DNA from: Okeania sp.
GTDB taxonomy: Bacteria; Cyanobacteriota; Cyanobacteriia; Cyanobacteriales; Microcoleaceae
Assembly (NCBI RefSeq): GCF_035285525.1
Contig: NZ_JAYKGW010000098.1
Coordinates: 1-32,000 of the forward strand
Reading direction: 5' to 3'
Length of the DNA stretch: 32,000 nt
Position numbers and translations under genes: made by a program. This document shows positions 3,337 to 20,508 of this stretch, one piece after another. Position 1 is the first letter of the stretch. Every line of letters starts with the position of its first letter. Under the pieces are notes generated by a model, which was not told the DNA's origin, did not search any database, and saw nothing but the letters and a program-made list of their open reading frames with translations.

Positions 3337-4278
3337 ATGATTTCTGTTATTTATTCCGATGAATTTCTCGAACACAAAACTGGCATGTCACACCCAGAGC
3401 GACCAGAACGTTTGACTGCTATTGTCGAAAGCCTCAAAACTTTTCCTAATCATGGCCAACTCCAATGGCAGTCACCCACCTCAGTACAACAGCGCGGTTC
3501 ATCATTGATGAAACTGCTAGAAAAAGTTCATTCTCGTAGTCATATTGGAACAGTAGCAGGAATAGCTAATAGTGGTGGCGGTTATCTAGATGGAGATACA
3601 CCAATTTCTGCTAAAAGTTATGATGTAGCATTGTTAGCGGTAAGTGCTTGGTTAGATGGGGTCGATCTAGTTTTGGAAAATGGGAAACCTGCTTTTGTTT
3701 TGGCAAGACCTCCCGGACACCATGCTGAAAGTCAACGAGGTATGGGTTTTTGCTTGTTTTCTAATGCAGCGATCGCCGCTCATTACGCTTTAGAAAAACC
3801 AGATATTAACAAAGTTGCGATTCTCGACTGGGATGTACATCATGGTAATGGTACTCAGGAAATCGTGGAAAGTAATAAAAATATCGCCTACTGTTCTCTC
3901 CATCAATCTCCCTGTTATCCGGGAACTGGGCATTCCTCAGAATGTGGTTCCTACAACAATGTACTAAATTTACCCATGTCACCAGGTAGCACAATGGCTA
4001 TTTATAAACCGACTTTTGAGGAAAAAGTCGTACCCTTTTTAGCTAATTTTCAACCAGATTTATTAATTGTTAGTGCTGGTTATGATGCTAACCATGACGA
4101 TCCATTAGCTGGTATTTCTTTAAAACCAAAAGACTATGGATTATTTACAGAAGATTGTTTACAAATAACCCGCAAAATATTATTTGGTTTAGAAGGAGGT
4201 TATGACTTACCTAGTTTATCTCAGTCAGTATTAGCAACAATTGAAAGTTGTCTTCTAGTTAGAGGGAATGGGCAATAG
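3337..4278 (+). CDS. Histone deacetylase-family protein (AcuC / acetylpolyamine amidohydrolase-like)
   Basis: 313 aa with ARPPGHHA, ILDWDVHHGNGTQ, SAGYDANHDDPL and EGGYDL motifs typical of the arginase/deacetylase fold. Confidence 0.9.
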   Translation: MISVIYSDEFLEHKTGMSHPERPERLTAIVESLKTFPNHGQLQWQSPTSVQQRGSSLMKLLEKVHSRSHIGTVAGIANSGGGYLDGDTPISAKSYDVALLAVSAWLDGVDLVLENGKPAFVLARPPGHHAESQRGMGFCLFSNAAIAAHYALEKPDINKVAILDWDVHHGNGTQEIVESNKNIAYCSLHQSPCYPGTGHSSECGSYNNVLNLPMSPGSTMAIYKPTFEEKVVPFLANFQPDLLIVSAGYDANHDDPLAGISLKPKDYGLFTEDCLQITRKILFGLEGGYDLPSLSQSVLATIESCLLVRGNGQ

Positions 4279-18182: not shown

Positions 18183-18247
18183 CAAGGTTTAACAGTTATT
18201 TAGCAGAAGTCCCGCACCATAATTTATTTGGTGTCGGGATGAATGCG

Positions 18248-18433
18248 TTATCTTTCTACCAATTTATCAACCTGTGACCGTTTGTCTTCTACATCATCTG
18301 GCAAATTATCTATGAAATCACTTATTACCTGAGTCATTGTTTTTTGTTTTTTGACTGCATATAATCTTAACTTATCTAATCTTTCTTTAGTCATTCGACA
18401 ATGTAATGATTCTTTCATAGTTATATGTTGCAA
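18248..18433 (-). CDS. Small ribbon-helix-helix (CopG/Arc-like) DNA-binding protein candidate
   Basis: 61 aa from a TTG start, or 56 aa from the ATG at 18418. [36 protein letters not shown] fits a beta-strand / helix / helix RHH pattern, followed by an acidic tail. The call is by pattern only. Confidence 0.55.
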
Positions 18434-18484
18434 TTATGTATACATACTATTATAATAGATATATGGTCGAAAGGGAAAAGAAAG

Positions 18485-19697
18485 ATGAGAATAGCCTACC
18501 AATATAAACTACGTCCAACAAAAGAACAAGCAGAAAAAATAGATAGAATTTTAGATATGTTGCGTTGTCAATATAATTATATGTTGGCTGAAAGGTTTAA
18601 TTGGTGGGAGCAAAATCGTTGTCCAATTAATGCTTGTCCTTTAATATGCCATCTTCCCGAATTAAAAGACCAGCCAACAAGATTTAGTCAGCAAAAGTCA
18701 TTAACTCAATTAAAAGTAGACAGACCTTGGTACAAAGAGATTCATTCTCAAGTTTTGCAAGAAGTGCCAAAACGGGTTGAATTAGCTTTTAAAAGATGGC
18801 TGAAAGGTGACATCAAAGGTAAACGCTCAGGCAAGCCTAGATTCAAAGGCAAAGGTCAGTACAAGACATTCACTTATGCTCAATTTCAGCAGCATCATTT
18901 TATCAACAATAGAGTTAAATTATCTAAAATTGGTGATGTAAAAGTAATTGTACATAGACCTATTCCAGATGGTTTTAGCATCAAAACAGCATCAATTACC
19001 CAAAAATCTAATGGCTCCGCAAGTCACATTTAGTTTAGAAGATAAGTCTGTACCCGAAATTAAACCAGATATTAAACGAGGTAATATTGTAGGTATAGAT
19101 GTAGGGTTAATAGACTTCTACGTTACTTCGGATAATGAGTCCGTACCAGCTCCTAAATATTTGAGAAAGTCTGAACGAAAACTCAAGTCAGCACAAAGAA
19201 AAGCATCTAGAAGAAAGAAAGGCTCTAAACGTAGACAAAAAGCTATTAAACAACTAGCCAAAAAGCATAGAAAAGTAGCTGATACTAGAAAAGATTTTCA
19301 CTTTAAAACTGCTAATAATTTGTTGAAAAAATATGACATTACAGCAGTAGAAGATTTGAATATTAAAGGTATGGCTAAGTCTAAGTTAGCTAAGTCTGTA
19401 CATGATGCAGGTTGGGGTCAATTTAATACTATATTAGCTAACAAAGCCGAAAAAGCTGGTCAGTTAATTGTAGAAGTCAAACCTCATGGAACATCTGTTG
19501 AATGTAGTAGATGTGGTCATAAAGTCAAGAAAACTTTGGCTCAGAGACAGCATAATTGTCCTAATTGTGGATTATCAATTGGACGTGATTATAATGCTGC
19601 AATTAATATCAGAGATCGATCCAAAGTATTGATGAAAGACTTGCTGCCACCAATCAAATTTGAAGCTTATCAAGGTACTCAATTGAGCCTGTTCTAA
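18485..19697 (+). pseudogene. tnpB: TnpB (RNA-guided RuvC-like nuclease, IS605 OrfB family) split by a 1-nt frameshift near 19012-19020
   Basis: Canonical N-terminus [15 protein letters not shown]. RuvC motifs are GIDVGLIDF, AVEDLNIKGM and GRDYNAAINI. The zinc finger is CSRCGH...CPNCG. The span is 1213 nt, which is 3n+1 and consistent with a single extra base. The two overlapping ORFs are 18425-19033 and 18948-19697. Confidence 0.85.
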
Positions 19698-19806
19698 ATC
19701 AATTGGAGAGGAAGGGCATTCCTTGCTAGCTCAGTTTATGTCTACATAGTAGAGTCGCTGAGAAGCCCGCACTGTAGCTTGTCTCAGTGTCGGGAGTATG
19801 TCACGC
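19560..19806 (+). ncRNA. Putative omega (right-end) guide RNA scaffold of the TnpB element
   Basis: The call is by position only. In characterised TnpB systems the guide RNA scaffold overlaps the tnpB 3' end and the RE hairpin, and the guide is read from flanking DNA. Here the RE hairpin is at 19766-19794 and the tail gagtatgtcac ends near 19804. Confidence 0.4.
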
Positions 19807-20217
19807 ATAATAAATCGGGTTTATTACTTTAATTAGAATTTGCTAAAAAAGTCTTGTTGTCAAGGTAGGGAGTCGGGAGTCGGGAGTAAAGTCACCCCCA
19901 ACCCCTCCGGTGGAGTGGAAGTTAAGAGGAATCAGGAGTTTTAGAGGATGTACTTGTAAAAATTCTCTCTTGCCAACTCTGCCCAAGTCTTACCCAGATA
20001 CTCACTTTTTCACTCTTATATATAAGGGAAAATCTGGTACTTTATCGCTATCTAAAAAGCCTAAAACATTAAAGTATTGATATATAAAAAAATTAGGCTT
20101 TTAAGGTTGGGAAAAAGTACAAGCTTTTTGCTCTTCATATTATTTCCTTTGGTGTCGTTTGTGTAAAAATTGGAGAAATATCTACCTTTTTTAAGGTTTT
20201 TTCTTCTCTTAAAGCTT

Positions 20218-20245
20218 CTTCCTTCTTCCTTCTTCCTTCTTCCTT
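20218..20245. repeat. Heptamer array (ttccttc) x4
   Basis: cttccttcttccttcttccttcttcc read directly. It accounts for the spurious low-complexity ORF 20061-20294. Confidence 0.9.
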
Positions 20246-20508
20246 TTTCCTTACCTTCTCTATACAAAACCGATGCTACCGGACATGATATCAATTGGCA
20301 AAAAAGCTAGGATTTTGGTTTACTTTGGCAGAAAAACTAAGGGATAATTCTTCCTCCTGTCTTCTGTAAATTTTCTACTTCTCCTGGATTGCAAGATTGC
20401 TGACTTTTGACTCTTTTCTGACAAAAAGACTTTTTCAGCAAACCCTAATTATTTATTGTTTTTCAAATCAGAAAATATAGAGTATAAATCTGACTTTTAG
20501 ATAATATC

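Follow-up and report, generated by a model that had tools for sequence, protein, structure and literature searches.

A mobile element of the IS200/IS605 family, 1.6 kb in length and without a transposase gene, was identified in a 32-kb stretch of DNA from Okeania sp. (positions 1 to 32,000 of contig NZ_JAYKGW010000098.1; this whole stretch is referred to as the window). The element is flanked by genes for an aldo/keto reductase and aminopeptidase P, and carries two genes head to head. A small gene for a predicted ribbon-helix-helix (RHH), Arc-like protein of 56 aa lies on the minus strand (18248-18418), and a tnpB pseudogene on the plus strand (18485-19697). Their start codons are separated by a divergent control region of 66 bp (18419-18484). 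On the plus strand, the left end (LE, 18194-18247) is directly preceded by the conserved motif TTTAAC (18188-18193), and a presumed omega-RNA scaffold together with the right end (RE, 19590-19804) overlaps the 3' end of tnpB. The locus is a new and unannotated cyanobacterial case of the published arc-tnpB pairing. The original prediction, made from the letters of this stretch, regarded an RHH partner of TnpB as undescribed; this claim of novelty fails, since the Arc-TnpB pairing had already been published (bioRxiv 10.1101/2023.11.20.567912; bioRxiv 10.64898/2026.09.24.754181; PMC10691335). It also implied a host among the Nostocales, whereas the host is Okeania (Oscillatoriales), and the flanking reductase is 100% identical to an Okeania sp. 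protein.

Hairpin ends and copies of the element

Both ends of the element contain a subterminal imperfect hairpin, and terminal inverted repeats are absent. The left hairpin reads AGAAG-T-CCCGCACC-N11-GGTG(T)CGGG (18205-18238) and the right hairpin AGAAG-CCCGCACTG-N10-CAGTG(T)CGGG (19761-19794), both with a bulged T, which in the left one is located at 18234. These hairpins had been predicted and could be confirmed. The pattern CCCGCAC-N8-20-GTGTCGGG occurs in the 32 kb only at 18211-18238 and 19766-19794, with 0 occurrences expected from 100 shuffles, and the signature of the element ends can be written as AGAAG-CCCGCAC...GTGTCGGGA. Folded as single-stranded DNA, the left hairpin reached -10.5 kcal/mol (z = -4.2) and the right hairpin -8.5 kcal/mol (z = -1.7), the latter being weak or marginal by energy alone. 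Compensatory changes were observed in the right stem of three loci (CTTTG/CAAAG in L005, L006 and L011) and in the left stem of one (CATCA/TGATG in L008).

A search with the small-protein family resulted in 62 loci from filamentous cyanobacteria. Eight close copies, from the window, Trichodesmium, Okeania, Dapis and an unclassified metagenome-assembled genome, align to window positions 18188-19804 with 80-93% identity and have nothing in common outside that span. The edges of these copies lie at 18188/18194 on the left and at 19804 on the right, in unrelated flanks, and therefore the small open reading frame (ORF) is located inside the element. On the right, all eight copies stop at the same base, with the terminus ...GTATGTCAC at 19804, and diverge at once. 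Thus the eight copies share the ends of the proposed hairpin-bounded element, with the RHH gene inside and divergent from tnpB; the hairpins are conserved at the copy boundaries and the RHH ORF is kept between them. Several copies of a subfamily can be present in one Okeania or Scytonema genome. In the more distant subfamilies B and C (the window copy belongs to group A) the RHH gene is likewise enclosed by a hairpin on either side, and the right ends finish in TCAC as well.

The motif TTTAAC was found to the left of six of the eight group-A copies, the other two reading ATTAAC (L011) and TTTAAG (L005), and to the left of all five group-C copies whose ends were inspected. Upstream of TTTAAC the sequence is unrelated from copy to copy, and no flank duplication was seen. 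TTTAAC is probably the insertion target, and hence the target-adjacent motif (TAM) of TnpB; it is provisionally placed outside rather than inside the element.

The small gene encodes a predicted RHH protein

The predicted minus-strand ORF at 18248-18433 exists, but its homologues begin at an internal methionine, which supports a protein of 56 aa encoded by 18248-18418 instead of the full frame. An exhaustive profile search defined an unannotated small-protein family of 267 clusters at 50% identity, for which there is no Pfam or NCBIfam model. Twelve residues are invariant in the homologues of the RHH gene, and within subfamilies the ratio of nonsynonymous to synonymous substitution rates (dN/dS) is 0.05-0.2. 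Judged by these comparisons, the 56-aa ORF is a real gene under purifying selection.

When the RHH protein was compared with Pfam and NCBIfam, nothing was found above cut-off. A first AlphaFold2 model, based on 28 sequences, was uninformative in Foldseek, with ParG as top match at E = 3.8. With a larger alignment, AlphaFold2 predicted an extended N-terminus and helices at residues 11-23 and 28-37 with a confidence score (pLDDT) of 84.7. The predicted order is thus strand-helix-helix, and the 15-20 C-terminal aa beyond this core are variable and were predicted with low confidence. The Foldseek list for this model consisted nearly entirely of RHH proteins, led by CopG, KacA, ParG and Arc. CopG was aligned with a root-mean-square deviation of 1.8 over 38 residues, and Arc with 1.0-1.2. 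Sub-threshold Pfam matches were collected for 86 family members and comprised DUF6364 in 44, 56B_RHH in 17, and further RHH_10, Antitox_RHH, ParD, RHH_1, TacA1 and ParG as recurrent matches. Every recurrent match is an RHH family, DUF6364 presumably being one of them. In a profile search against the PDB, ParG and the viral RHH protein 56B were the leading matches, both weak (E = 0.11 for ParG). Individually weak scores are expected for a domain of 40 residues. The RHH fold was accepted because the weak fold and profile matches agree, and in this sense the RHH-like pattern of the original prediction is indicated by the modelling, through the agreement of AlphaFold2, Foldseek and profiles and not through any single match. 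In one Aetokthonos locus (L040, about 3920-3985) the frame stays open for ~90 aa, past the usual end at 51-57 aa.

tnpB, the presumed omega-RNA and the lack of a transposase gene

The predicted tnpB is present inside the element, but it is not intact. In the window it is distributed over two frames (18485-19033 and 18948-19697), and comparison with four intact copies placed the break at about 19017-19023, where there are a +1-nt change and substitutions nearby. Unless this frameshift is a sequencing error, the sequence identifies the tnpB of the window as a pseudogene. With Pfam, HTH_OrfB_IS605, OrfB_IS605 and Cas12f1-like_TNB were detected on the two pieces, which in tblastn are 92-93% identical to the intact TnpB of 403 aa from L001, the copy of Trichodesmium MO_231.B1. 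The intact sibling TnpB matched the NCBIfam model guided_TnpB at 322 bits. Its full-length match to ISDra2 TnpB had E = 2e-49 and brought the D/E/D motifs into register, and the residue opposite the RuvC-III motif of TnpB structures is the canonical aspartate. Gene callers place the start of tnpB ~20 codons too early (MLQLC...), both in L001 (3723-4994) and in the window (18425-19033). As a result of this early call, the spacer is largely counted as coding sequence and only 6 nt remain before the RHH start, while the conserved start MRIAYQYKL is located at window position 18485.

The final 215 nt of the element form a conserved multi-stem consensus fold of 52 pairs, 11 of which show compensatory changes among eight related sequences. 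A search of the whole window with Rfam at gathering scores gave zero matches. The fold is presumed to be the omega-RNA scaffold, ending at RE, where the hairpin occupies 19766-19794. In TnpB/omega-RNA systems the guide corresponds to the DNA just past RE. By analogy with this layout, the flank GCATAATAAATCGGGT (19805-19820, plus strand) would be the guide of the window copy.

In agreement with the original prediction, a motif screen and Pfam searches of the mid-size ORFs revealed no Y1/HUH transposase in either the element or the window, and the space between the element ends is too small for tnpA. The motif screen, which used regular expressions and was run without positive control, also covered 186 loci and detected no tnpA there. 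Although the tnpB of the window copy is broken, this copy has an intact RHH gene, intact ends on both sides and an intact RNA region.

Linkage of the RHH gene and tnpB

In 50 of 63 genome loci, tnpB is located directly upstream of the RHH gene and divergent from it. Every pair is arranged head to head, mostly with a spacer of 42-74 bp. Both genes are intact in 30 of the 63 distinct loci. An intact RHH gene was found 21 times next to a tnpB that is broken (11 loci, as in the window) or absent (10 loci), whereas the reverse combination of a broken RHH gene and an intact tnpB was observed in four loci; the remaining eight show other combinations or are cut by a contig end. The paired TnpB proteins have 32-94% identity to that of L001, the closest intact copy, and this wide range indicates that the linkage between the RHH gene and tnpB is old. 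Other tnpB genes in the fetched loci serve as a partial control: none of them, including three behind the same hairpin type, has an adjoining gene of the RHH family, and therefore the adjacency is not trivial. In the loci without tnpB neither Cas12k nor another partner was found, and the neighbours are housekeeping genes only.

The divergent control region contains candidate operator units

In the spacer, a putative promoter for tnpB consists of TTGCAA (18428-18433) and TATAAT (18451-18456), separated by 17 nt, and both hexamers are conserved among the sibling copies. The -10 hexamer lies inside the palindrome ATTATAAT, which could serve as -10 in both directions, including the minus strand. 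Between the -35 and -10 hexamers the sequence TATGTATACATAC (18435-18447) was assigned as candidate operator, because it is homologous to TCTAYACAAAC, the repeated unit of group B. Across subfamilies, two direct repeats with a spacing of 11 bp are located in the 25 nt adjoining the RHH start codon (three in one locus). The summed score of these direct repeats was 240, compared to 192 ± 5 for shuffles and 168-189 for other spacings. The locus with three units is L040, an Aetokthonos copy, which has three tandem GTTTCCTC instead of two.

In groups B and C the repeat unit changes together with the strand residues that are predicted to face the DNA. The strand GLNLRIS is found with CTAYACAA, KYIRVRTS with GTTTCCTC, and KVRLSVRIA with CTACCC. 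HxR and NxR strands pair with units of the T(G/C)TAYACAA type, and RxR strands with GTTTCCTC. Group A, with the strand ESLHCRIT, has one clear unit, TGTAYACAAAC, between -35 and -10 and a second, degenerate one in overlap with the -35. Candidate operator units of the spacer are TGTAYACAAAC and TGTTGCAAT. A 12-bp palindrome at 18435-18446 had been suggested as binding site for the small protein. This palindrome, TATGTATACATA, does exist, but it is private to the window copy and the siblings read TGTACACA.

Comparison with known systems

Zedaveinyte et al. (bioRxiv 10.1101/2023.11.20.567912) reported that Arc-like RHH ORFs are associated with both TnpB elements and Cas12k transposons. Binding of Arc to the tnpB promoter and its repression were established by ChIP-seq, reporters and mutagenesis in a preprint that includes elements with arc and tnpB only (Moon et al., 2026, bioRxiv 10.64898/2026.09.24.754181). 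Both studies deal with Clostridia and make no mention of cyanobacteria. Like the Arc of IS605-family elements and IStrons, the Okeania gene is a small RHH gene inside the element ends, in an arrangement that is often divergent from tnpB with a short, promoter-bearing spacer. The published Arc binding sites overlap the tnpB promoter; here 11-bp repeats are found in groups B and C, while those of group A are not significant. In published Arc elements with both tnpA and tnpB, arc lies on the strand of tnpA and opposite to tnpB, whereas here no tnpA is linked. The likeness to published Arc proteins (WP_003367503.1, WP_094548610.1) that is described here concerns layout and predicted fold.

The ends of the element resemble those of tnpB-only (IS1341-type) elements and ISDra2 in their subterminal hairpins with a bulged T and the lack of terminal inverted repeats, and probably also in the lack of a duplication and the fixed motif to the left of LE. 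Unlike those elements, it has an additional regulator gene between LE and tnpB. Its predicted TAM is TTTAAC, compared to TTGAT for ISDra2.

In cyanobacteria, genes for Arc_1 and Arc_2 of 53-72 aa are located divergent from cas12k (PMC9938897, 2023). The Okeania element shares with these CRISPR-associated transposons of type V-K (CAST) an RHH gene that lies immediately upstream of a TnpB-derived effector, and is divergent from it, in filamentous cyanobacteria. It differs in that the partner tnpB keeps its catalytic residues and in being an IS element and not Tn7-like. Homology to Arc_1 and Arc_2 was considered and rejected, as profile comparison of the present family by hhalign gave E = 0.16 and 0.069, respectively. 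In archaea, pairs in which a small RHH/MazE gene is located upstream of tnpB were read as toxin-antitoxin systems; these loci are non-mobile and have a rearranged RuvC-III motif (Altae-Tran et al., 2023, PMC10691335). Both systems have a small RHH-type DNA-binding protein stably linked to tnpB, but the cyanobacterial genes are divergent and belong to mobile elements, and their TnpB has a canonical catalytic triad.

While the general principle of Arc repression is already published, the present locus would widen transposon-encoded regulation of TnpB by Arc-type proteins from Clostridia to filamentous cyanobacteria, and to elements without their own transposase. What it adds are these non-autonomous elements, the covariation of protein and candidate operator, and the survival of RHH genes where tnpB is dead or lost. 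As DNA-facing strand residues and spacer motif vary together, the subfamilies provide a natural series in which operator specificity would be easy to probe. The regulator genes next to cas12k in these organisms have a matching layout, which bears on the way in which TnpB-derived systems are kept in check.

Proposed function of the RHH protein and alternatives

The locus is read as a non-autonomous tnpB-only element of the IS200/IS605 family, in which the small gene, by analogy with the published Arc systems, most likely represses tnpB and itself. The element, located at approximately 18194-19804, would have been inserted in the Okeania chromosome next to a TTTAAC target, on its right side. Its hairpin ends are of the kind recognised by Y1 TnpA, and an unlinked TnpA would act on them in trans. 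In intact copies, TnpB with the omega-RNA from the 3' region would cut the emptied site (TTTAAC plus right flank) after excision, and the element would be restored; this step is proposed because of ISDra2 and related work. A dimer of the Arc/CopG-like RHH protein would bind the 66-bp spacer and repress both the tnpB promoter and its own, which may keep the nuclease and guide RNA at a low level, as suggested by analogy and by partial sequence support.

Several results weigh against repression by an RHH protein in a trans-mobilised element. None of the Foldseek, Pfam or PDB matches to the RHH protein is individually significant. The match to a promoter is no better than chance and there is no excess of promoter-like matches in the region. 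The direct-repeat statistic is not significant for group A, to which the window copy belongs, and the 12-bp palindrome was rejected as a conserved operator as it is confined to the window copy. For group C a second role of the repeat is conceivable, since its reverse complement, GAGGAAAC, could also act as ribosome-binding site for the RHH gene. The retention rates are biased, since the loci were gathered through the RHH gene. Finally, TnpA was not found in the window or in the 186 loci, so that mobilisation in trans is assumed.

The small ORF might be taken for a fortuitous frame within the left end in view of its short length, the missing annotation and the lack of a match to a curated family, but this is almost certainly wrong, as it is refuted by the number of clusters, the invariant residues, the low dN/dS and the confident fold. 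The RHH protein might instead be an antitoxin-like inhibitor of TnpB or of the TnpB/omega-RNA complex, which blocks cleavage and forms an addiction module. RHH proteins are common as antitoxins, many of the Foldseek matches are antitoxins (KacA, AtaR, TacA, ParD and MazE-mt9), the C-terminal tail beyond the RHH core is variable and of low confidence, and an addiction module was proposed for the archaeal RHH/MazE-TnpB pairs (PMC10691335). Nevertheless, this function is unlikely here. The RHH gene and tnpB are divergent and do not form an operon, the elements are mobile, and the D/E/D motif of TnpB is canonical and lacks the rearranged RuvC-III of the archaeal clade. Moreover, an antitoxin would not be expected to remain intact where its toxin is broken or absent, as observed in the 21 loci described above, although this sample is biased. 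It is very unlikely that the protein is an accessory factor of transposition, which would help or restrain a TnpA acting in trans by binding at the ends or to nearby double-stranded DNA. The stop codon of the RHH gene is 9 nt from the stem of the left-end hairpin, and the gene has the position held by tnpA in IS605-type elements. However, the candidate operator sequence is found only in the spacer and near neither end, and the conserved repeats are at the promoter and not at the ends. TnpA works on hairpins in single-stranded DNA, while the binding site of RHH proteins is the major groove of a duplex.

The loci that have lost tnpB could also be explained by domestication, in which the RHH protein controls genes of the host or acts in trans on every sibling copy, so that its link to tnpB would be historical. 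In ten loci an intact RHH gene lies amid housekeeping genes in the absence of tnpB, and solo loci such as L027, L028, L032, L033, L036 and L037 keep the upstream repeats and a -10-like box. Since the pair stays inside mobile ends in most loci, and the solo genes could be recent remnants in a sample found through the RHH gene, this explanation is quite unlikely as well. Rather doubtful, if conceivable, are two further ideas: that the RHH protein, beyond repressing its own tnpB in cis, also serves all siblings in trans as a copy-number or 'immunity' factor and outlives tnpB, in line with the 21 loci against four of the reverse combination, or that the pair represents an ancestral arrangement that was rebuilt by the Cas12k transposons of cyanobacteria with Arc_1, Arc_2 or CvkR. 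Repression of tnpB and of its own gene thus stays the preferred function of the RHH protein.

Relatives of the element ends and flanking DNA

The hairpin type of LE is also the left end of the group-C elements and of other TnpB elements without an RHH gene. In L100 (65-559), L163 (3273-4694) and L166 (126-1388) it is located directly upstream of another tnpB, with no RHH gene in between. These tnpB genes are distantly related (31-33% identity in L100 and L163), and the end type is therefore common to several TnpB lineages. A metagenome scan for the hairpin with a loose pattern gave 120 hits, the majority due to chance and about a dozen of them true relatives. Neither tnpA nor an RHH gene was found in these relatives, except for L103, which is the contig of L002 again. 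Solo hairpins of the form AGAAGCCCCGCACT(G/A)TACCGTAGGTCAGTGTCGGGA were observed in intergenic DNA without tnpB or RHH gene, at L145 (7247-7282), L157 (363-398) and L182 (2154-2189), and also in L106, L118 and L171. In L145, L157 and L182 an identical reading frame (...LPHDRTLLFHRSFLDTQMLPFTYPRPDTST...) is present in the DNA beside the solo hairpin, which points to a miniature, non-autonomous element with ends of this family. Two loci, L014 (4001-4214) and L015 (1265-1433), have kept only the left end and the RHH gene of the subfamily of the window; in L015 an unrelated, fragmented tnpB is located on the other side.

An empty site was sought in other Okeania through orthologues of the two flanking genes, for the aldo/keto reductase and the aminopeptidase, but none was recovered, because directly beyond the reductase stop codon both the intergenic DNA and the gene order are different. 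Downstream of the reductase, the gene order is different in every Okeania genome examined. In Okeania sp. SIO3I5 a MerR-plus-resolvase gene (L188, 6481-7089), for a serine transposase of the IS607 type, comes after the orthologous aldo/keto reductase. Just right of the element in the window, two 7-nt tandem repeats were observed, GGGAGTC x2.9 (19868-19887) and CTTCTTC x5.4 (20215-20252), and repeats of the CTTCTTC type were found again in other Okeania loci, for example in L004 (9566-9635) and L061 (6408-6516). Between the element and the aminopeptidase gene there is also a 36-nt inverted repeat (20029-20064 and 20093-20128), the arms of which are 81% complementary and separated by a loop of 28 nt.

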